A stretch of DNA of 64,000 nucleotides from Muribaculaceae bacterium (GCA_017621225.1 JAGATN010000008.1:62952-126951); one strand, 5' to 3'. Shown: positions 8,097-35,883, counted from the first letter of the stretch. Numbers and translations: made by a program. Notes: generated from the sequence alone by a model not told the origin.

Positions 8097-8173
8097 TGGT
8101 CGGGGTGACTAGACTCGAACTAGCGACCTCACGCCCCCCAGACGCGTACTCTAACCAACTGAGCTACACCCCG
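8097..8173 (-). tRNA. tRNA-Pro(GGG)
   Basis: Minus strand folds as a cloverleaf: CGGGGTG acceptor stem, AGCTCAGTTGG D-arm, CT-GGG-GG anticodon loop, TTCGA T-loop, encoded CCA. Confidence 0.95.
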
Positions 8174-14480: not shown

Positions 14481-15686
14481 TCAACTGATGGTGCCCCAGG
14501 TAAAGTTGCGATACCGGCGACGGAATCCCTTGATGCGAAGCGCCAAATTGTATAACGGATGCAGCGACACGAACCATGGCACCGTAAGGAGCAACGGTCG
14601 CGAACGCAATGCGCGCGACGTCTTTCGCCACACTATCATAACGGGCAGGCACAATATGCATGCAAGGATGAATACGGCACCCGAAGCCACTACCGACGGC
14701 AGAGTGAGCAACACCGTGGCGACAGAAGCCACAATCCACAACCACCACGCCCATGAAAACGAGGCGAAAAGCCTGAAAGGAGCGCGAGGCAGATAGCCGG
14801 CGGTAAAGTCGCGCCGCATATGGTTTACGCCATGCACGTAAGCCGGAGCCTCGTCGAGAATGTCGACAATGGAGTCGGCCGACAATTCGGCCACGGCATT
14901 GTCGCGACGCGCCACTTCGTTTATAAATATGTCGTCATCGCCATAATTAAGATTGAGCGACCGCGAAAAGCCCTTGTTGTCGAAAAACACGTCGCGGCGG
15001 TAAGCGATGTTGCAGCCGTTTCCGCGAAACGTTTTTCGCGACAGCACCCTCGACAGATAACGCACGGCATCCCATACCGTATCGAATGCCCTGAACCGCT
15101 TGGAGCTATCGTTATCATTGCCGGAGCGCGCCGACGGAGCCGCATAGCCTATCACTATGTCGGTGCTTTCATCGTTAAAATGGCTCATCATATTGCGCAA
15201 CCATTTGTCGGAGCGTATGGCACAGTTGCCGGCAGTGAGAACCACGACATCATTGCAGGCTGCCTTTATGCCGAGGGTTATCGAAAGCTTTTTGCGACTC
15301 AGGTTGCGCGAATCGCCCGGCACGAAAGTGGTGCGCAGACGCGGATACTTGGCCTGAAGCGTCGACAACACATCCTTTGTATCGTCGAACGAATTGTCGT
15401 CAACCACTATCACCTCTATTTCCGACGGATAGTCCTGACCATATATCTTATCCACCAAGTCAGGCAAATTCCAGGCCGATGAACTTGCAGTCACCACTAC
15501 CGAAGCCGGCGGCAGCCACGAAGTGTCGTCAGACGATGCGTTGGCCGACGATGACGCGCGCAACACCTTGAGCAATTGCGGAAGCATGACGCACAGCAAA
15601 TACAATGCGGCCACGAATGCCACGGAAAATGCAATCCACGCTACAAGCGGAAAATCGACAGACAAAAGTACAGGATCAATATTCAT
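14481..15686 (-). CDS. Membrane-bound GT2 glycosyltransferase
   Basis: N-terminal TM; EVIVVDDNSFD, RKKLSITLG, GNGCNIAYRR and GDDDIFIN motifs; C-terminal TMs. Start chosen at MNIDP. Confidence 0.85.
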   Translation of the reverse strand: MNIDPVLLSVDFPLVAWIAFSVAFVAALYLLCVMLPQLLKVLRASSSANASSDDTSWLPPASVVVTASSSAWNLPDLVDKIYGQDYPSEIEVIVVDDNSFDDTKDVLSTLQAKYPRLRTTFVPGDSRNLSRKKLSITLGIKAACNDVVVLTAGNCAIRSDKWLRNMMSHFNDESTDIVIGYAAPSARSGNDNDSSKRFRAFDTVWDAVRYLSRVLSRKTFRGNGCNIAYRRDVFFDNKGFSRSLNLNYGDDDIFINEVARRDNAVAELSADSIVDILDEAPAYVHGVNHMRRDFTAGYLPRAPFRLFASFSWAWWLWIVASVATVLLTLPSVVASGAVFILACILCLPVMIVWRKTSRALRSRPLLLTVPWFVSLHPLYNLALRIKGFRRRYRNFTWGTIS

Positions 15687-15800
15687 AGTACAAAGGTAGC
15701 AATCTCTCATATAATTATCCCCCTAAAATGTGCCAAATTTTCAAAAAAGGTGGTCGGCCGCGCGGCATGCGTCAAACGGCCATGCAAAAAAACAAAATAA

Positions 15801-15962
15801 GTGTATGTTTACCTTTGGCTTATGTTAAGATTTAGAGAGCATTTCAGATTATGTTTGGAGATTGAATGAGGAAGTTATGGGGTACCATAACGACTGAATG
15901 AAATCTACAAACAGAACTGAAAGGCCTCTAAAGTTTTCATAAAGTTGAAAGTAAACATACTC
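15801..15962. repeat. 162-bp palindromic MITE-like element, copy 1
   Basis: Terminal inverted repeat GTGTATGTTTAC / GTAAACATACTC (11/12), TAA on both flanks, internal arms complementary along the whole length. Confidence 0.8.
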
Positions 15963-16028
15963 TAAGATTGCACATGCGAATATATTTTTCTATATTTGCC
16001 TTACCAATTAAAAAGCGCATTAAATATT

Positions 16029-18140
16029 ATGCTAAAACCAAAATTAATATTGCTGACGTTAGTTGCCCTATTAACGACATCAATAGCAAGTTCCCAAGAA
16101 ATCAATTCATTACACGACAGTTTAACCAACGAATTAGAGAAAGCCAAAATTCCGGAAGAACAAATAAAAATATTGTATGACCTGTTTGACATTTCGCTGA
16201 GTCGCGACGAAATGCAGAGCACCGGATTCAAAATATACGACATAGCCCACAAGACCAACAACGTTCCTGTACAGATCGACATATTGAAACAATTGGCCAA
16301 TCTGTATCTGCGCAACGATTCGATATTGGTGGAAATACGGTCGCACATAATGGCCCTGCCCGAATCGGACGACCAGAAAGAAGCACTCGCCTTCGTCAAT
16401 ATCCGAATGGTATTATCGCAATTGTGGTATGCCGACGAGTACACCCGACAGATGCGCCTGTCAAAAATAATCAAGAACTACTCTGACAACAAGCCCACCG
16501 ACATCTACGAGCAGATAGAACGCGTATTCTCAATGCTCATATTTCTCGGCTTTGACACCAACAACGAGCTTACTTCACAAAACATAGTCAAGTTAAAGAT
16601 TTTGATCGACAAGTTGCCCGAAAGGCACTATGCATTGCGCAATATGCTGTATACCATGGCGGCGATAATGTACACTCAAAACGAAAATCCCGAAAAAGCC
16701 GTCGAAGTGGAGCGAAAGCTGCTCAACATTATGTCGTCATTGTCAAAAAAATATAAGCAAGAAGGCCGAAAATACCGTAATTTCGCCGACTCTTATTACA
16801 ACTCATATCGCCGCTTGCTAAGCAACTATCCGGCACTGACATTGGATGAAGTAAACCACTATTACGCTCAGATACTTCGCATGGCAGAAGAATCGCCCCG
16901 AATAAAGCTCAACCTGGAGATAGATCCGCGCCCCAAAGCATATTATCTGCTGGCCCACGAACGATATGACGAAGCCATACCCATGCTCAAAAAAATCAAA
17001 GAAGATCCTCGAAACAGTACGCTCAGACTGCCTTTGCTGAAAGCCATACGGCATGCGGCCGCCCAAATAGGCGACAGCGCCACCATACGCAACTCGGCGA
17101 TGGAATACTGCGATCTTCTCGAAAACTACATTAAATTAAACGCGGCCGACCATTACAAGGAGCTGCAAATACTATACGACCTCGAAAATCTGCGGAGCAA
17201 AAACAACAATCTGGAAATTGAGAAGCGCGAAACGGAAATAGAATTTCACCGAAACTGGATAATAACCGGCATTGGCGCCATAATATTGCTTTTGGCGATA
17301 CTGTTGATTGTGTACAAATCGTACGTCAAGACAAAATCGCTGACCCTCAAACTCGAGAGCTCGAACGAGATGCTACGAAAAGAGCGCGACAACCTGGAAA
17401 AGGCCAAAAAGGAGCTCGTAAAATCTGCCGACCTCGCAATAAACGCCGAGCAACAAAAAAACGATTTCATCAACAACATAAGCCACGAAATAAAGCAACC
17501 ACTCGATGCCATAGTGGAATACTCGCAATTGATAGTCGACAACACCCGCAATGGCAACAAGCATCTCGACAACTTCGCTTCGATGGTGTCGCTGAATTCC
17601 GATCTGCTTATGACGCTCGTAAACGACATTCTCGACACGTCGATGCTCGAAAACGGAAAAATGACCATAAACGTGCGTCCCGCTTCGGTAAACCAAATAT
17701 GCACCATGGCCATCAACTCTACCGCAAAATTGGTAAACAAGAACGTGACGTTGAAATACCTGAACGAGAACGACCCCGACAGGCCGATATTCACCGACCA
17801 GCAACGTGTGGAGCAAGTGTTGCTCAACCTCATAAGCAATGCGGCAAAATTCACGTCAGAAGGAAGCATAACGCTCGAATACGACATTAATACGCTCAAG
17901 CATGAATTGCGATTCATAGTCACCGACACCGGCATCGGAATACCCAAAGGCAAGGAAGAAACCATATTCAAACGCTTTGAAAAGCTCGACCCGTATGCAC
18001 AGGGCACCGGACTTGGCCTGCACATAAGCCGCCTCATAGCGCAGCTACTCGGCGGAAGCATCAGGCTCGACACCACCTATCACTCGGGAGCGCGTTTCAT
18101 ATTCACGATTCCTACCGACCGACGCAATTCGAGCCTTTAA
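16029..18140 (+). CDS. Membrane sensor histidine kinase (HisKA + HATPase_c)
   Basis: Signal peptide, large helical extracytoplasmic domain and TM; H-box ISHEIKQP, N-box NLISNAAKF, DTGIG and GTGLGL. TATATTTG promoter motif at 15991. Confidence 0.9.
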   Translation: MLKPKLILLTLVALLTTSIASSQEINSLHDSLTNELEKAKIPEEQIKILYDLFDISLSRDEMQSTGFKIYDIAHKTNNVPVQIDILKQLANLYLRNDSILVEIRSHIMALPESDDQKEALAFVNIRMVLSQLWYADEYTRQMRLSKIIKNYSDNKPTDIYEQIERVFSMLIFLGFDTNNELTSQNIVKLKILIDKLPERHYALRNMLYTMAAIMYTQNENPEKAVEVERKLLNIMSSLSKKYKQEGRKYRNFADSYYNSYRRLLSNYPALTLDEVNHYYAQILRMAEESPRIKLNLEIDPRPKAYYLLAHERYDEAIPMLKKIKEDPRNSTLRLPLLKAIRHAAAQIGDSATIRNSAMEYCDLLENYIKLNAADHYKELQILYDLENLRSKNNNLEIEKRETEIEFHRNWIITGIGAIILLLAILLIVYKSYVKTKSLTLKLESSNEMLRKERDNLEKAKKELVKSADLAINAEQQKNDFINNISHEIKQPLDAIVEYSQLIVDNTRNGNKHLDNFASMVSLNSDLLMTLVNDILDTSMLENGKMTINVRPASVNQICTMAINSTAKLVNKNVTLKYLNENDPDRPIFTDQQRVEQVLLNLISNAAKFTSEGSITLEYDINTLKHELRFIVTDTGIGIPKGKEETIFKRFEKLDPYAQGTGLGLHISRLIAQLLGGSIRLDTTYHSGARFIFTIPTDRRNSSL

Positions 18141-19034: not shown

Positions 19035-20300
19035 GTGATCCGAACCGACAGGATATGCATAATGATATTTCTCGGGAGCTTCATTCTGATGCTTCCGAGC
19101 TTCGCATTTCTGAAATTTGCCGACGAGTTGTGCGCATATGGATTGCTGGCATTGGCATTGGCCGATTGTTTTGCCAACGGAAATTGGGACCGATATTCGC
19201 TGCTCTGGGCCATTATGGCCGTAATGGCATTCTATGCATTCTACTCGCTGACGCTCCCCTACAACACGCCTGCGGCCATCGCCAAGGACTGGCTGATACA
19301 GCTTAAACCGTTCATACCGTTTGCGGTCATTCTAACGATAAGGCCGTCGATGACCGAAACCGACAAACGCATAGCCCGCATCACCGCCATAGTTACGGTA
19401 GCCGTGACCGCGATATTGATGATAGCCGGAAACCACGTGGTGCGCAAACTGATAGTGCACATCACATATTGCGGCATAAGCTGCTTTGTAAGTGCAATGA
19501 TCTATCTGTTTTGCAGCATCGACCGAAAAGGAGAGATAACCCGAACCGACATGTTTACGGCCATCGCCATGCTCACCATAGGGCTTGGATGCACGCGCGC
19601 GAAATATTACGGCATATTCGTACTGGCATTGTACTTCCTGCTTTTTTACAAACCGGGCATATTCACGCGCCGCTCCACAATGAGCATGCTTACCGTTGCG
19701 GCGGTAGGCGCGCTCGTAATGGCCGTAAGCTGGCACAAAATACAATATTACTTTCTATCGGGCGAAGGCACCGATTTCGACATCTCAGTAATCGAATCGT
19801 ACGCGCGCCCGGTAATGTACGCCACCGGGGTGCTCGTCATAGCCGACCGTCTGCTGCTCGGCAGCGGACTCGCATCGTTCGGGTCGTACGTTTCGGGCGA
19901 GAGCTATTCGGCCCTTTACCATGAATATGGCATCGACAAAGTGTATGGTCTGAGCGAATCGATGCATGAATTCATATGCGACGCCTTCTATCCCTCGCTG
20001 GCCCAGTTCGGCCTGATAGGCATAATGCTGTTCGCGGCATTCTGGATCTACATATACCGCCTGCTGCTACACATGCTACGCTCCGACCCTCAGTTAGGCC
20101 GGTATTACTACATAATCGGCGTCATCACCATATGCTTCATAGGCATAGAAAGCATAGCGTCGACCACATTGGTTCAAAGCCCCGGCATGGTGCTGATGAT
20201 GCTTTTAGCCTTCATATGCGCCAAATCGGCATGCTTGTTCGGCGTGCCCTCGCTCCCGAAACCCATAGACAAAATCAGAAAACTTAAAATCATCACATAA
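19035..20300 (+). CDS. Putative polysaccharide polymerase (Wzy / O-antigen ligase-like)
   Basis: About 10-11 TMs with a periplasmic loop LLGSGLASFG; located in a Wza/Wzx cluster. Confidence 0.65.
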   Translation: MIRTDRICIMIFLGSFILMLPSFAFLKFADELCAYGLLALALADCFANGNWDRYSLLWAIMAVMAFYAFYSLTLPYNTPAAIAKDWLIQLKPFIPFAVILTIRPSMTETDKRIARITAIVTVAVTAILMIAGNHVVRKLIVHITYCGISCFVSAMIYLFCSIDRKGEITRTDMFTAIAMLTIGLGCTRAKYYGIFVLALYFLLFYKPGIFTRRSTMSMLTVAAVGALVMAVSWHKIQYYFLSGEGTDFDISVIESYARPVMYATGVLVIADRLLLGSGLASFGSYVSGESYSALYHEYGIDKVYGLSESMHEFICDAFYPSLAQFGLIGIMLFAAFWIYIYRLLLHMLRSDPQLGRYYYIIGVITICFIGIESIASTTLVQSPGMVLMMLLAFICAKSACLFGVPSLPKPIDKIRKLKIIT

Positions 20301-24748: not shown

Positions 24749-25744
24749 ATGCAAGGCAGTTTAATAACGACATATCGATGCAACGCACATTGCAACATGT
24801 GCAACATATGGCAACATCCCACATCGCCGGTCGACGAAATTGATCCGGCCTATTATGCGAAGCTCCCTGCCGGACTCAGGATAAACATTACCGGCGGAGA
24901 AGCCACCTTGCGGCGCGACATTGACAAGATATTCGAAATACTGTATCCGAAAGCTTCGCTCCTGGAACTAAGCACAAATGGCTACAACACCGACGCCATA
25001 GTGGCATTAGCCCGAAAATACCCGAACATATTAATACGTGTAAGCGTGGAGGGGCTTCCGAAAATAAACGATTCGAAGCGAGGGCTCGTCAACGGATTCG
25101 ACCACGCACTGCGCACCATACTCGAACTGAAGAAAACGAAATGCAAGAACATAGGATTTTCAGTCGTGATATCGCCCGACAATTACAGCGACCTCGTTTC
25201 GCTATACGAGCTGTGCGTAGCGCTCGAAGTGGAACTCGGCAACTCCACCGTGCATAACTCCTGGTATTTTCATAAACACGACAACGTGGTGGAAAGCGCC
25301 GACGCATTGCGCGAACACGAACGCTTCGTAAAAGCCCTTCTCACGTCGAAACGCCGGGGCATCAAGGCCAAGCTCAAAGATTACGGCCGAGCCTATTTCA
25401 ACCGTTCGATACACCGCAGACTGCGTGGCGACGAGCCGGGCTACCGACCGCCGTGCGGAGCGCTCTCCGACTTCTTTTTCATCGATCCGGCAGGCAACGT
25501 ATCGCCCTGCAACGGGTCGGCCGACGAATGGATAATAGGAAACATCAAGGAATGCGACCTTGAGCAGATACTCAAGTCGCCCAAAGCCCGTGAAGTGGCG
25601 GAAAAAGTGAAAGCCTGCAAGCGCAACTGCGCATTCATAGTAACCGAACGCCACGACATGGTTCGCCGGCCATGGATTCCCATTGCATGGATTCTAAAAA
25701 ACAAATGGCACATTTTTCGCGGCAAAGATATATGCTGGGAATGA
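24749..25744 (+). CDS. Radical SAM protein with SPASM/Twitch domain
   Basis: CNAHCNMC, ITGGE, STNG and RVSVEG motifs; C-terminal CGA..GNVSPCN..C..C cysteine cluster. Confidence 0.88.
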   Translation: MQGSLITTYRCNAHCNMCNIWQHPTSPVDEIDPAYYAKLPAGLRINITGGEATLRRDIDKIFEILYPKASLLELSTNGYNTDAIVALARKYPNILIRVSVEGLPKINDSKRGLVNGFDHALRTILELKKTKCKNIGFSVVISPDNYSDLVSLYELCVALEVELGNSTVHNSWYFHKHDNVVESADALREHERFVKALLTSKRRGIKAKLKDYGRAYFNRSIHRRLRGDEPGYRPPCGALSDFFFIDPAGNVSPCNGSADEWIIGNIKECDLEQILKSPKAREVAEKVKACKRNCAFIVTERHDMVRRPWIPIAWILKNKWHIFRGKDICWE

Positions 25745-26831: not shown

Positions 26832-26863
26832 TTTGCTTTTGCCGCCAATATTCACTAATTTTG
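26832..26863 (+). promoter_or_regulatory. Bacteroidetes promoter of the queuosine-precursor transporter
   Basis: TTTG (26832-26835), 20-nt spacer, TAATTTTG (26856-26863). Confidence 0.75.
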
Positions 26864-26879
26864 CAGCAAATAAATCACA

Positions 26880-26909
26880 CCGAGTGCTTGCTACCTCGTA
26901 AAAAACAAG
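26880..26909 (+). promoter_or_regulatory. preQ1 class I riboswitch
   Basis: CGAG-TGCTTGCTAC-CTCG-TAAAAAACAAG: P1 stem, loop CTTG pairing with tail CAAG, A-rich tail; directly upstream of a Q-precursor transporter. Confidence 0.8.
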
Positions 26910-26913
26910 AAAT

Positions 26914-27558
26914 ATGTCGAAAACATCATTCTCATTTACATTTTTGCTGCTCACGCTTACGTTTTGCGTGTGCCTGATAGTGTCGAACCTCATGGAGATA
27001 AAGGTGGTCGACCTCGGGTTCCTGACCATCACCGCCGGAGTAATAACGTTTCCCATCTCATATATAATAAGCGACTGCATAGTCGAAATCTACGGATTCA
27101 GCAAGGCGCGCATGGTGATATGGCTCGGATTTGCGGCAAACCTTACGGTATCGCTGCTTCTGCAAATAGGCATCTGGCTTCCCGGCGCATCGAGTTGGGA
27201 AGGGCAAGAAGCGATGCAAATGATATTCGGAGCCGTTCCGCGCATATTCGCGGCAAGCTTCATAGCCTTTTTGTCGGGCTCGATGGTAAATGCCTACGTG
27301 ATGGACAAGATGAAACGATCGGACGGCCGACAGCGGTTTTCGCTACGCGCCATAGTCTCCACGCTCTGGGGCGAAGGAGTCGACTCAATCGTATTTTTCC
27401 CGATAGCATTTGCGGGCACATTGCCGTGGAGCGAAATAGCCATGCTCATCATTACGCAGACGGTGCTCAAAACCTCATACGAGATACTGATTCTGCCCGT
27501 AACCATACAGGTGGTGAAAAGGCTTCGACGAATAGAATCGGCTTCGGCTGAAGCATAA
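26914..27558 (+). CDS. yhhQ: Queuosine precursor transporter (YhhQ/VUT family)
   Basis: LIVSNLMEIK..FPISYIISDCIVEIYGFSKAR..PRIFAASFIAFL..ST..G...DS; multiple TMs. Confidence 0.9.
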   Translation: MSKTSFSFTFLLLTLTFCVCLIVSNLMEIKVVDLGFLTITAGVITFPISYIISDCIVEIYGFSKARMVIWLGFAANLTVSLLLQIGIWLPGASSWEGQEAMQMIFGAVPRIFAASFIAFLSGSMVNAYVMDKMKRSDGRQRFSLRAIVSTLWGEGVDSIVFFPIAFAGTLPWSEIAMLIITQTVLKTSYEILILPVTIQVVKRLRRIESASAEA

Positions 27559-31856: not shown

Positions 31857-33461
31857 ATGAACATAAAAAGCATATTTTTAGTAGCATTATCGCTATGCAC
31901 CACAACGCTCAACGCCCAACGCGTCGACCCCGACTCCATACCACCCGAACGATTGAGCTGCACAAGCATAATGGTGGGCAAAAAAGCATCGGCCGACGGT
32001 TCGGTAATGACGAGCCACACCTGCGACGGAAACTACCGCGCTTGGATGGACATAGTGCCCGGCACAAAATATGAGCGTGACACCACCGCAACGGTATACA
32101 CCGGACGCATGCATACCGACCACTCAACCGGCGCGCGCGGCATGAAACAGGCCGGCATCGTACCCGTCAAAGGCACTACCTACAACTTCCTTAACACCGC
32201 ATATCCCTGCCTTAACGAAAAGCAGCTTGGCATAGGCGAAACCACCATTGGCGGACGCAAGGAGCTTGAAAATCCCAAAGGCATGTTCATGATCGAGGAA
32301 CTCGAAAGGCTTGCATTGCAGCAGTGCACCACGGCGCGCGAAGCCATCCGACTCATGGGCGACCTCGTAAAGGAATACGGCTACGGCGACAGCGGCGAAT
32401 GCCTCACCATAGCCGACCCCGACGAAGTGTGGATGTTTGAGATATTCGGCGAAGGCCCCGACGCGATAGGCGGAGTATGGGCGGCTGTGCGCATCCCCGA
32501 CGACCACGTGGGCATATCGGCCAACATATCGCGCATATCAAAAATCGACCTCAACGACCCCGACAATTACATGGCGTCCGACAACGTGACCGAAGTAGCC
32601 AAAAAGATGGGATTCTGGGATGGAAAAGAGCCGTTCCGATTCTGGAAAGCTTACTCCGGCACCAACTACTTCAACGAGCCGAAAAACTTCAGCATACGCG
32701 AATATTACCTTATGAAGAAGCTCAACTCGTCGTTAAAAGCCGATTTCGACGACGAAGAACTCCCCTTCAGCATTAAGCCCGACAACAAGCTTTCGGTAGC
32801 CGACGTAATGGAACTGCTCACCGAAACATACGAAGGCTCGGAGTACGATATGACGAAAAATCTGAAAGTGGCCCGCAGAAACAACGAAAAGGTCGATTCG
32901 GTGACAAGCCCCATGGCCAACCCTTGGATGACATCGGAAATGATGAAAATGCTTAACGGCATCAAGGAAGGCACGGTGAAAAACTGGCGCACCGTATCAG
33001 TGCCTCAATGCGCATACTCCACCGTGATACAGCTTCGCGACTGGCTCCCCGACGACGTGGGCGGTGTGGCCTGGGTGGCATTCGACAACCCCGGACAAAG
33101 CCCGAGAATACCGATATTTTCCGGCACACTCGACCTCCCCGACTGCTTCAAAGTCGACGGACAGCTTCGCCACGACGAAAACGCTGCCTTGTGGGCGTTC
33201 CGACGTGCCAACAAGCTCTCTACGCTGAAATGGGGCGTGACGCGCGACAAAATGACCAAAGCTCGCCGCCACTTCATCAAAAAGGGCGTCAGCGAGATGC
33301 CGTTCGTAGAATCGCAGTATGACGAAATAATGAAAAACGAAGGTAGCGATGCCGCTCGTGAATTCCTGACCGACTATACCGCCGACTTTGCCGGCGCCGC
33401 CATACTGAAATGGAACGAACTGGGCAAACAGTTCTGGAGCATGTTCGGACGCGCCTTCTGA
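31857..33461 (+). CDS. C69-family dipeptidase
   Basis: CTSIMVGKKASADGSVMTSHTCD Ntn-hydrolase start; NEKQLGIGETT; IADPDEVW. Confidence 0.88.
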   Translation: MNIKSIFLVALSLCTTTLNAQRVDPDSIPPERLSCTSIMVGKKASADGSVMTSHTCDGNYRAWMDIVPGTKYERDTTATVYTGRMHTDHSTGARGMKQAGIVPVKGTTYNFLNTAYPCLNEKQLGIGETTIGGRKELENPKGMFMIEELERLALQQCTTAREAIRLMGDLVKEYGYGDSGECLTIADPDEVWMFEIFGEGPDAIGGVWAAVRIPDDHVGISANISRISKIDLNDPDNYMASDNVTEVAKKMGFWDGKEPFRFWKAYSGTNYFNEPKNFSIREYYLMKKLNSSLKADFDDEELPFSIKPDNKLSVADVMELLTETYEGSEYDMTKNLKVARRNNEKVDSVTSPMANPWMTSEMMKMLNGIKEGTVKNWRTVSVPQCAYSTVIQLRDWLPDDVGGVAWVAFDNPGQSPRIPIFSGTLDLPDCFKVDGQLRHDENAALWAFRRANKLSTLKWGVTRDKMTKARRHFIKKGVSEMPFVESQYDEIMKNEGSDAAREFLTDYTADFAGAAILKWNELGKQFWSMFGRAF

Positions 33462-33479
33462 CACCGATCCCGACTCTAA

Positions 33480-33641
33480 GAAACTGTTTAAATTTATTTG
33501 TCGAAGGAATTGAGAGGATTTGTCAAGTAGATTTTTGATATTTATGAAGGAGCTATGGGGTGCCATAATGACTGAATAAATATCAACAAGATGCTGACAA
33601 AGACCTCAATGACAAGACAAAATAAATTTTTAAACAGTTTC
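33480..33641. repeat. 162-bp palindromic MITE-like element, copy 2
   Basis: Perfect 13-bp terminal inverted repeat GAAACTGTTTAAA, TAA on both flanks, complementary internal arms, apex motif shared with copy 1. Confidence 0.85.
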
Positions 33642-33678
33642 TAACCGCCAATTAATAACTTAAATGCCTTAACATCAA

Positions 33679-35883
33679 ATGAGACGTAAATCATTTCTGC
33701 TACCGCTTTTTTGTAGTGCCGCTGCCATAGCAACGGCCGTGACACCCGATTCAAACACCGTAAAGATACTCCCGGGCGACAGCGCCGACGACATAATAGT
33801 CAAGGCGGCAAACGTGCGCCCGTCGGCCAACCAGCTTGCCGCACTCGAAAACGAATTCATAGCGTTCATCCACTTCGGGCCAAACACCTTCACGCGCAAG
33901 GAATGGGGCAACGGCATGGAGGATCCTCGAATATTCGACCTGAAGACCCTCGACACCGACCAATGGTGCAAAGCAATGAAAGATGCCGGCATGACGATGG
34001 TGCTGTTCACCGCAAAGCATCATGACGGATTCGTGCTCTGGCAAAGCCGATACACCGATCACGGCATAATGTCGACCGGATTCCGCGACGGCAAGGGCGA
34101 CATCCTCCGCGACCTGTCAGAGTCATGCAAAAAATACGGCCTGAAGCTCGGCATATACCTGTCGCCCGCCGACCTGTACCAGATTGAAAATCCCGCCGGA
34201 CTTTACGGAAACCTGAGCAAAAAAACCAAGCGTACAATTCCGCGCGAAGTACCCGGACGGCCGTTTGCCAACGACACCAAATTCACGTTTGAAGTCGACG
34301 ACTACAACGAATACTTCCTCAATCAGCTGTTTGAGCTGCTTACCGAATACGGCCCGATATACGAAGTGTGGTTCGACGGCGCACACCCCAAGCGCAAAGG
34401 TGGCCAGACATACAACTATGCCGCGTGGAAAGAGCTGATACACACTCTCGCTCCCAACGCCACGATATTCGGGCGCGAGGACATTCGCTGGTGCGGAAAC
34501 GAAGCCGGCAACACGCGCGACACCGAGTGGAACGTAGTGACCTATGACGTCGACCCCGACACAGCATCGCAGTTCCACGACATGACCGACATTGACCTCG
34601 GCAGCCGCGACCGACTGCTAAAAGGCAAATACCTCCATTACCAACCGGCCGAAACCAACACGTCGATACGCGCCGGATGGTTTTACCGCGACGACGACAC
34701 GCAGCAAGTGCGCAGCGCCGACGACGTGTTCGACATCTACGAGCGCTCCGTTGGCGGCAACTCCATATTCCTGCTCAACATACCGCCAAACCGCGAAGGA
34801 CGCTTTTCGGCCACCGACGTCGACGTGTTGCGCGAAGTGGGGCAACGCATATCCGACACCTACGGCGCCGACCTGCTTGCCGACGCCAAGGCAGCTTCGC
34901 AGCTGCTCGACGACGACCTATCGACTTACGTCGACTACACCGAGCCGATTGAAATAAAGCTGCCGTCACCGAAATGCATGAACCGCATAGTGATACAGGA
35001 AGCCATAGGCAGCAAGGGCGAGCGCGTGGAGAGTCACTTCGTCGATGCATGGATCGACGGTCAGTGGCGCGAGATAGCCGGAGCCACAAACATCGGATAC
35101 AAGCGCATACTCCGTTTCCCCGACGTAACCACCGACCGCATAAGGCTCCGCGTCGAAAAGTCGCGCCTCACACCAGCAATAGGCAAAATCTCGGCACACC
35201 ACTACAAGTCGCGCCCGCCGCAGCTCGTAGCGTCGCGTTCGCTCGACGGCATGGTGACCATACAGCCCAAGCCGCAAGGATTCGGATGGAAAGATCACGG
35301 ACAGGACATAACCGCCAATCTGAGCGCCGGATACCGCATACACTACACCACCGACGGCTCGGAGCCAACCGACAAGTCGCCCGTCTACACCACTCCGTTT
35401 GCCATGGGTGCCGGAACGCTCAAAGCCCTTTCGGTGCTGAACGGCAGCAACGGCCCCGTACTTAACGAGACGATGGGGTTGATAAAGGCCGATTGGAAGT
35501 CAGTCGACACCGATGGAGCCGACAAGCACTCCCCCGCCATGGCATTCGACGAAAATGCCGGCACCTATTGGCAGTCGGCCGGCGATAAGCCGACGTTTAC
35601 CGTCGATCTCGGCAAAAAGAGCAGCATAAACGGCATGGCCTACACTCCCCCGACAAGCTCATCGGCAGGCGCAATGATGACCAAAGGCACACTGCTGGTA
35701 AGCAACGACGGCAAAAACTTCAAAAAGGCAGGCTCATTCGAATTCGGCAACATGGTCAACGACCCGTCAAAAAGGCATTTTTACCTTAAGAAGCCCGTAT
35801 CGGCACGATTCGTACGCATCGAAATAGCCGAAACCACCGACGCGTCAAAACCGGTGGCCATTTCCGAAATAGACATATTTTAA
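33679..35883 (+). CDS. GH29 alpha-L-fucosidase with accessory F5/8-type-C and Fn3-like domains
   Basis: AFIHFGPNTF..EWG, TAKHHDGF, VWFDGA, SIRAGWFY and LLNIPPN motifs; YTTDGSEPT. Confidence 0.92.
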   Translation: MRRKSFLLPLFCSAAAIATAVTPDSNTVKILPGDSADDIIVKAANVRPSANQLAALENEFIAFIHFGPNTFTRKEWGNGMEDPRIFDLKTLDTDQWCKAMKDAGMTMVLFTAKHHDGFVLWQSRYTDHGIMSTGFRDGKGDILRDLSESCKKYGLKLGIYLSPADLYQIENPAGLYGNLSKKTKRTIPREVPGRPFANDTKFTFEVDDYNEYFLNQLFELLTEYGPIYEVWFDGAHPKRKGGQTYNYAAWKELIHTLAPNATIFGREDIRWCGNEAGNTRDTEWNVVTYDVDPDTASQFHDMTDIDLGSRDRLLKGKYLHYQPAETNTSIRAGWFYRDDDTQQVRSADDVFDIYERSVGGNSIFLLNIPPNREGRFSATDVDVLREVGQRISDTYGADLLADAKAASQLLDDDLSTYVDYTEPIEIKLPSPKCMNRIVIQEAIGSKGERVESHFVDAWIDGQWREIAGATNIGYKRILRFPDVTTDRIRLRVEKSRLTPAIGKISAHHYKSRPPQLVASRSLDGMVTIQPKPQGFGWKDHGQDITANLSAGYRIHYTTDGSEPTDKSPVYTTPFAMGAGTLKALSVLNGSNGPVLNETMGLIKADWKSVDTDGADKHSPAMAFDENAGTYWQSAGDKPTFTVDLGKKSSINGMAYTPPTSSSAGAMMTKGTLLVSNDGKNFKKAGSFEFGNMVNDPSKRHFYLKKPVSARFVRIEIAETTDASKPVAISEIDIF

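Follow-up and report, generated by a model that had tools for sequence, protein, structure and literature searches.

A hairpin module with strand-biased G•A and G·U positions, common to MITEs and IS5-family ends of Muribaculaceae and other Bacteroidales

The closest described systems are of several kinds. Correia (nemis) elements of Neisseria are intergenic MITEs of 100-160 bp, whose hairpins are co-transcribed and processed by RNase III and which carry a functional central site. ERIC (IRU) and REP (BIME) repeats of enterobacteria are imperfect palindromes located in intergenic regions, with orientation bias and an orientation-dependent effect on mRNA. IS200/IS605 elements are characterised by subterminal hairpins and a Y1 HUH transposase, and have neither terminal inverted repeats nor a target duplication. 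In IS10 and IS50, fold-back inhibition relies on an RNA structure that forms only in transcripts started outside the element and that blocks expression of the transposase. The IS5 family, finally, is a bacterial relative of PIF/Harbinger. Full-text searches of the literature revealed no MITEs of the kind described here in Muribaculaceae or Bacteroidales; the only ones found, from Porphyromonas gingivalis, are unrelated by description.

Two elements of 162 bp each are present in the window, i.e., the whole 64-kb stretch of Muribaculaceae DNA that was analysed. Copy 1 (15801-15962, + strand, arm type A; termini GTGTATGTTTAC...GTAAACATACTC) forms a hairpin over its full length and is flanked by a TAA target-site duplication (15798-15800 on the left, 15963-15965 on the right); its neighbours are a divergent GT2 glycosyltransferase gene (14481-15710, - strand) on one side and a histidine kinase gene (about 15996-18140, + strand) on the other. 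Copy 2 (33480-33641, + strand, arm type B; termini GAAACTGTTTAA...TTAAACAGTTTC) is likewise bordered by TAA (33477-33479 and 33642-33644) and occupies most of the 217-nt gap between genes for a C69 peptidase (31857-33461, +) and a GH29 fucosidase (33679-35883, +), its well-folding strand being sense to both. The module at the apex of copy 1 (15866-15899, +) consists of GA-AU-GA-GG-AA, GUUAUGG, loop GGUA, CCAUAAC and GA-CU-GA-AU, with the inner GA replaced by AA, and that of copy 2 (33544-33577, +) of GA-AG-GA, GCUAUGG, loop GGUG, CCAUAAU and GA-CU-GA.

Direct reading of the two 34-mers confirmed the 29 identical positions from which an earlier note on this DNA had argued for a mobile structured-RNA repeat, and a 25-nt core with up to three mismatches occurs at just these two sites of the window and at none in 100 shuffles. 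Its description of divergent arms that keep their pairing within an equal length of 162 bp also stands for both elements, as does the conservation of the centre; that the centre alone is conserved does not, since the termini GnGTATGTTTAC and GAAACTGTTTAA have TGTTTA in common, and a MAFFT alignment of the two copies shows TGTTTA/TAAACA at both termini besides the apex. Folded as RNA, copies 1 and 2 have minimum free energies of -63.3 and -63.5 kcal/mol (z = -9.5 and -9.9, no shuffle being as stable). The well-folding strand (GA strand) reaches -61.8 vs -50.3 kcal/mol for its complement in copy 1, and -60.9 vs -45.8 kcal/mol in copy 2.

The genome to which the window belongs, a 2.53-Mb draft in 47 contigs, contains 47 copies as counted by the core with up to four mismatches (15 with type A arms, 32 with type B arms), near-identical within each type. 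Most adjoin gene ends; several are located at contig ends, with contigs breaking inside elements. Of 38 complete copies, all with terminal inverted repeats (GAGTATGTTTAC/GTAAACATACTC in type A, GAAACTGTTTAA/TTAAACAGTTTC in type B), 28 are exactly 162 bp long and 30 have identical 3-bp flanks (TTA in 13, TAA in 13, TCA in three and TTG in one). An empty site was identified in a related strain, where a metatranscriptome contig joins 33462 to 33640 (CCGAC|TCTAACCGCC) and a single TAA is left. Terminal repeats, a target duplication of variable sequence, a small non-coding multicopy body, an autonomous partner (see below) and presence/absence polymorphism are thus all found together, and the MITE or IS-end anatomy of the window elements is practically certain. 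They belong to a MITE superfamily tied to IS5-family elements. The earlier view of a mobile repeat family under selection for a one-strand fold holds, and its contrast with a 'purely DNA-level MITE' has to be given up: in having inverted terminal repeats, TWA duplications of 3 bp and IS5-family partners, the elements are MITEs of the classical kind.

Several rearranged copies were seen in the same genome outside the window. At G000:C8:90629-90954 a type B and a type A element stand head to tail with TCA between them (CAGTTTC TCA GAGTATG), which looks like the insertion of one element beside the other, or into its duplication. Two internal-deletion derivatives of type B, a 38-bp remnant made of the two termini only (C29:~25454-25491) and one devoid of the apex (C42:~19480-19580), agree with a deletion mediated by the hairpin. 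Solo termini of type A, ~20 bp long, number about seven (C25:1949, C34:13481, C35:48611, C37:50166, C41:3542, C42:34344 and C8:94533). The segment C30:11518-12930, considered as an autonomous IS with type A ends, was rejected as such: it is recA between two partial elements, one of them a solo left terminus and the other an inverted, truncated right half, both of type A, and could be a rearrangement or a composite-like structure. The + strand of the contigs carries 37 of 46 elements (forward/reverse 37:9), and among the 15 longest contigs 11 have negative GC skew on this strand. The contigs are therefore not oriented at random, which may reflect a convention of the assembler or of binning. A mini-ORF in the apex (ATG AAG GAG ... 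TAA) was discarded, as its start is GTG in most type A copies, the changes are non-synonymous and the frame continues into the variable arms.

A single IS5-family element was identified in the genome (G000:C41:~1580-2480; L061, about 1426-2320). It is 895 bp long and apparently intact, and encodes a 259-aa transposase (NF033580, 182.6 bits; DUF4096 and DDE_Tnp_1). Its terminal repeat, GAGAGTGTTTGAATTT/GAGAGTGTTTGAATTTAAAT, is identical to that at the end of a type A MITE from another genus; the two flanks of the IS are TAA and TTA, i.e., not a direct repeat. Related IS5-family repeats with TTA/TAA flanks match the other MITE types B, C and E (GAGCTTGTTTAAAAA, GAAACTGTTTTGAAAA, GAGCCGGTTCGACAATAAATGTTAA..., GGCTCCGTTCCACAAAAATCGTTAACGC... 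and GAGCCGGTTCGACAATAAATGTTAATCGCAGGGCGGT). No intact partner with exact type A or B termini was found in the draft genome of the window.

The module itself was found just inside both terminal repeats of longer, 1.1-kb IS5-family elements (L183/L190, 1116 bp; L184/L199, 1152 bp; L210), and at the one end available in four partial copies (L205, L207, L211 and L219). Along the GA strand the terminal repeat precedes the module on its 5' side in 10 of 10 cases, so that the well-folding strand reads inward. The apex stems of these modules vary (GCGATGG/CCATCGT, GCAATGC/GCATTGT, GCGTAG/CTACGT, GTTTAGC/GCTAAAC and GTGTAC/GTACAC) and are unlike even between the two ends of one IS, while GA-RG-GA ... 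GA-CY-GA is constant. The centre of the MITEs is thus inherited from, or common to, a subterminal module of IS5-family elements. The distance from terminus to apex in the IS is ~79 nt, which, doubled and with a 4-nt loop added, gives the MITE length of 162 bp; this suggests that the single-hairpin MITEs arose by copying one IS end back on itself. The module is dispensable for transposition, because 0.9-kb relatives of the module-bearing IS do not have it and a type B sub-lineage with a broken G-C pair (GAATGA) is still present at a minimum of 10 copies. Two further conserved patterns accompany these ends: a GGTAAY(T)T motif 3' of the 3' arm of the module (in L183, L184, L205, L207, L210, L211 and L219 and in MITEs of types C and E), and, ~20 nt below the apex in IS ends and type C MITEs, the pair GAGYRATTTT/GAAAGATGCC with a further G•A tandem.

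Carriers include Muribaculum, Paramuribaculum intestinale DSM 100749, Duncaniella and many gut MAGs of the Muribaculaceae, and sequencing runs containing the window are mostly rodent gut metagenomes. The apex pattern was detected in 23 of 151 Muribaculaceae genomes (nine of 35 genera). It is patchily distributed, and a genome may have up to 30 copies. The 148 distinct copies of Muribaculaceae MITEs fall into about 50 arm lineages with unrelated arms and termini and a common GA-NG-GA-GTTATGG-GGYN-CCATAAY-GA-CN-GA. Type C MITEs are ~340 bp long and have one or two modules beside the terminal repeats. In one of them (L035/L143, cluster 33) the hairpin is a near-perfect palindrome whose GA strand points outward to the nearest terminus, as would result if recombination of the two arms had inverted an asymmetric centre. 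Type D MITEs are marked by AGTAAGTC... ends, a length of 162 bp and TA...TA flanks in 16 of 20 copies; their partner IS was not found in the two genomes searched for it (G117 and G122). Types A, B and D (L220-L239 in G117, and the window's genome) have unrelated ends and are all exactly 162 bp long. A hammerhead-like CUGAUGAG in type D has no Rfam ribozyme match and no stem II, and was set aside as a by-product of the G•A pattern.

A covariance model (R1) extended the distribution to other Bacteroidales families (G379, G409 and G289; E-values from 1e-11 to 3e-7). One of these families has nine positive genomes among 41, two of them with 42 and 28 copies. The MITEs there include one type with GTGATGATGAAATAATAAC ends and TWA duplications and another, ~250 bp long, with CCCAAATCGGTCATTAGA ends that carries the module. 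In the one DDE_Tnp_1 IS end with the CCCAAATCGGTCATTAGA repeat that was examined, the module is absent (L280 and L299 in G505 for this comparison). This indicates that the module moves between element families, and in the CCCAAATCGGTCATTAGA MITE it appears to have been acquired as cargo.

The module is composed of a 6-7-bp stem-loop, a tandem G•A of sheared type, a 2-bp helix R-G/C-Y and a second tandem G•A; below it, additional G•A tandems and numerous G·U pairs usually follow within a stem of 35-45 bp. Covariation was assessed in two alignments with a structure that we specified ourselves: A2, comprising 50 arm lineages, and A3, in which 10 IS modules are added. In A2, 86.1% of the cells at paired positions are paired, vs 69.2% after shuffling (a level reached by none of 500 shuffles) and ~40% with slid partners, and both sides change in 21 of 27 pairs. 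The apex stem is invariant in A2, and this alignment alone does not separate an RNA from a DNA palindrome. In A3 the apex stem shows compensatory changes at pairs 22-37 (UA in 14, CG in seven), 23-36 (UA in 13, GC in six, AU in three), 24-35 (AU in 18, UA in three) and 27-32 (GC in 13, CG in eight). The two inner G•A tandems are preserved in 47-49 of 50 lineages, and the helix between them consists of A-U (21) or G-C (20) at pair 35-60, followed by an invariant G-C. The loop is GGYN, most often GGTT (36 of 50 lineages), and not the fixed GGTR tetraloop read from the two window copies.

Positions other than Watson-Crick pairs are nearly all G•A or G·U (239, vs 29 of the complementary kinds), so that the GA strand forms a strong hairpin and the complementary strand a weak one. 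At designated pairs we counted 115 G·U vs 16 A·C, and 124 G•A vs 13 C·U. The difference in folding energy between the + and - strands averages -17.6 kcal/mol with RNA parameters, in favour of the + strand in 52 of 52 lineages; with DNA parameters the GA strand is favoured in 50 of 52. As arms of inverted repeats covary for DNA-level reasons too, we place the weight on covariation in the IS apex stems and on the G·U/G•A bias, and it is this strand asymmetry that points to selection on the fold of one particular strand. Compensatory changes together with non-canonical positions biased to one strand mark a structured single-strand element, RNA or ssDNA, and selection very probably acts on the fold of one strand, as the earlier note had proposed from two copies.

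No Rfam 15 family matched at the gathering threshold when the two elements and eight variant loci were searched; the best matches on the two elements were miRNA models with E = 0.2 or worse, and the comparison the earlier note had called for thus retrieved no family for them. The sole match at this threshold in the 64-kb window is a tRNA gene (8100-8173, - strand, 58.4 bits), and the same scan reported no preQ1 family at 26832-26916. Around either element no terminator-like site was found on either strand, and a U-tract is absent, so the hairpin is not a canonical intrinsic (Rho-independent) terminator. The suggested resemblance to a kink-turn or box C/D RNA did not survive inspection: tandem G•A is common to both and CUGA stands on the 3' side in half of the lineages, but the loops are symmetric (2x2) and lack the 3-nt bulge, C and U are about equally frequent at the Y of the 3' sequence GACYGA (GACCGA in the other half of the lineages), two to four G•A tandems follow in a row, and no Rfam family bearing a C/D motif or K-turn matched the module. 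FopS/GibS sRNA families of Bacteroides were rejected as relatives, their architecture of single-stranded seed and terminator being unlike that of the module; they are deposited in Rfam, and no match to them was obtained.

Among mobile repeats, Correia elements are similar in being short intergenic MITEs with terminal inverted repeats, but they have no sequence relation to the present ones and differ in their TA duplication and their central duplex IHF site, whereas the centre here is a one-strand G•A/G·U hairpin common to IS5-family ends. ERIC and REP are comparable as palindromic intergenic repeats with orientation bias relative to transcription. REPs, however, are moved by RAYT (HUH) enzymes and do not have terminal repeats or target duplications, and a RAYT-mobilised REP/BIME is ruled out since module elements have both. 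The ERIC sequence is unlike and its partner unknown, and neither ERIC nor REP has the ladder of tandem G•A. Ends of IS200/IS605 type are excluded by the terminal repeats, the duplications and the presence of DDE_Tnp_1 + DUF4096 transposases. Tourist-like (PIF/Harbinger, TWA) and Stowaway-like (Tc1/mariner, TA) MITEs of plants are likewise non-autonomous DDE elements forming full-length hairpins, and their duplications are paralleled by TWA in types A, B and C and by the TA flanks of type D; the present elements differ from them in being bacterial and in having one conserved central module common to unrelated MITE families. The hairpin is a new, uncatalogued structured module in a known kind of element, namely MITEs and IS ends that have side effects at the RNA level.

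All copies are intergenic. Gene calls were crude (ORFs of at least 90-100 aa, ATG starts only), and with such calls the GA strand in gaps between same-strand genes of Muribaculaceae is antisense in 52 cases and sense in 24 (p = 0.002), with the same lean in the genome of the window (16:8) and in other genomes (36:16). In pooled numbers and with the same crude calls, such gaps of up to 250 nt contain 24 antisense and four sense copies vs 35:28 in longer gaps (Fisher p = 0.008). The effect of gap size is marginal in Muribaculaceae alone (Fisher p = 0.056; Mann-Whitney p = 0.12). In other Bacteroidales families sense copies occur in long gaps only (Mann-Whitney p = 0.001), and solo hairpins that fill gaps of 128-205 nt, e.g., between guaB and guaA, are all antisense. 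Copy 2 of the window, a sense copy in a tight gap of 217 nt, runs counter to the trend. A link to replication was rejected: the GA strand shows no signal relative to local GC skew (27:20). As TTA and TAA are also equally common, neither replication nor asymmetry of the target explains the bias. It varies with the direction of the genes and the size of the gap, and thereby points to an effect on transcripts. The orientation bias is linked to transcription context, and the strongly folding strand is usually not the one present in neighbouring mRNAs.

What could such a module do? The fold probably acts as RNA, and the best overall explanation, to which we would give about an even chance, is an RNA hairpin module that disrupts transcripts entering the element. 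A transcript arriving from outside would carry the GA strand and form a long, very stable hairpin that would separate it from downstream sequence, and a transcript in the opposite direction would carry the weak complement and pass. The transposase gene of an IS would in this way be shielded from read-through at both ends, and insertion of a single-module MITE would be polar in one orientation only; such polarity would account for the antisense position of the GA strand where two genes on the same strand are close together. Candidate means of cutting off the transcript are pausing or termination, cleavage of RNase III type, or a protein recognising the G•A ladder. The mechanism proposed is the same as fold-back inhibition in IS10 and IS50, with the difference that there a ribosome-binding site is sequestered at one end, whereas here each of the two ends has a predicted hairpin of ~110 nt, and the start codon is more than 100 nt away.

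That the module serves as a one-directional insulator is a plausible reading, which we hold with somewhat less than even confidence. The inward direction of the GA strand at both ends is not specific to it, because any long inverted-repeat arrangement gives the same. It also leaves unexplained the apex GTTATGG...CCATAAC, identical across Muribaculaceae MITE lineages and variable in IS copies, as well as the near-invariant inner G•A tandems and R-G/C-Y helix, which suggest a specific binding partner. More tentatively, we consider a portable one-directional RNA insulator present in several kinds of Bacteroidales elements (IS5-family elements with 3-bp TWA duplications, TA-flanked elements and elements with CCCAAATCGG... 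ends). Its G•A tandems and G·U pairs would then serve to restrict folding to transcripts of one direction, and its invariant G•A / R-G:C-Y / G•A core may be read by a putative factor. The RNA data consist of unstranded Logan metatranscriptome contigs, in whose assembly palindromes collapse; presence of the elements and the empty site were read from these.

The hairpin might instead act as single-stranded or cruciform DNA during transposition or replication, since the strand asymmetry persists with DNA energy parameters (50 of 52 lineages) and G•A and G·T are the best-tolerated mismatches of DNA hairpins too. The GA strand is the non-transferred strand with its 5' end at the terminus, and its fold could assist end recognition, synapsis or timing, or bring together the two ends of a 162-bp single-hairpin MITE; the module directly adjoins the terminal repeats at both IS ends, it occurs in MITEs with three kinds of target duplication, and the length of exactly 162 bp, common to types A, B and D, may reflect a constraint of geometry. 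IS5-family and related DDE transposases, however, are not known to act on single-stranded substrates, and the 0.9-kb relatives without a module, together with the degenerate sub-lineage that is still amplified, speak against a need for it in transposition. Any recognition would have to be by shape, given the unlike apex stems at the left and right ends of one IS. Orientation is independent of GC skew, and its variation with the direction of neighbouring genes and the size of the gap is not expected from a role in DNA alone; we regard this role as a serious rival, though a rather unlikely one. A duplex DNA site, bound by a host architectural protein that bends the element for transpososome assembly, would be in line with the central position and the ~34-bp extent of the conserved segment, which resemble those of the central IHF site in Correia elements. 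Such a site would have no need for GA dinucleotides in mirrored positions or for a bias towards G·T, and the IS apex stem is fully changed by compensation, even between the ends of one element, so that we find this explanation very improbable.

A different function at the RNA level is conceivable, namely a protein-binding handle with the invariant G•A ladder as the binding site, or a small or antisense RNA encoded by the element and started from its own promoter in the T-rich 5' arm, whose 3' arm could pair with transcripts of other copies. The near-invariance of the two G•A tandems and the R-G/C-Y helix amid covarying surroundings exceeds what stability needs, most copies are antisense to their neighbours, and TTTG-containing motifs are located 12-20 nt upstream of the apex (TATGTTTG in type A, GATTTTTG in types B and C). 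Yet TTTG is not conserved, many copies of type C having TTTTCG or TTTCCG; the Bacteroidetes -7 box (TAnnTTTG), considered as a conserved internal promoter, is found in type A and is not conserved across types. The summed depth of RNA contigs, a weak measure, is about that expected from copy number, with no large excess, and no candidate binding protein was identified; on balance, a handle or an element-encoded RNA is unlikely. The module could also be a functionless relic in MITEs that arose when one IS end was copied back on itself about a small hairpin already present there. The apex would then be nothing but the centre of symmetry, and would look conserved owing to the youth of the families. 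The relation of 2 x ~79 nt plus a 4-nt loop to the 162-bp MITE length, the near-identity of copies within a family and the internal-deletion derivatives agree with such an origin. Neutral decay of a palindrome, on the other hand, cannot produce excesses of 7:1 (G·U) and 10:1 (G•A) over the complementary kinds; the module persists across Bacteroidales families with the G•A fixed and with arms and apex stems diverged and covarying, and it is carried by a MITE with unrelated terminal repeats and is absent from the matching IS end. A mere relic is therefore quite improbable.

The findings concern several fields. For RNA biology, the strand-specific hairpin with its G•A/G·U ladder and invariant core is an uncatalogued structure that comes with hundreds of natural variants for studies of folding and binding, and for transposon biology it represents a non-terminal module common to IS and MITE families with unrelated ends. 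In practical terms, these repeats break Muribaculaceae assemblies, and the covariance model built here can be used to annotate them. Muribaculaceae are dominant and little-studied gut bacteria, and related genomes contain up to 30-42 copies. If the insulator reading is true, bursts of MITEs would scatter direction-dependent transcript barriers through gut-bacterial genomes. Each insertion would rewire operon read-through according to its orientation, and strains would come to differ in their regulation through such bursts, for example at the peptidase-fucosidase junction, which is occupied here and empty in a related strain.
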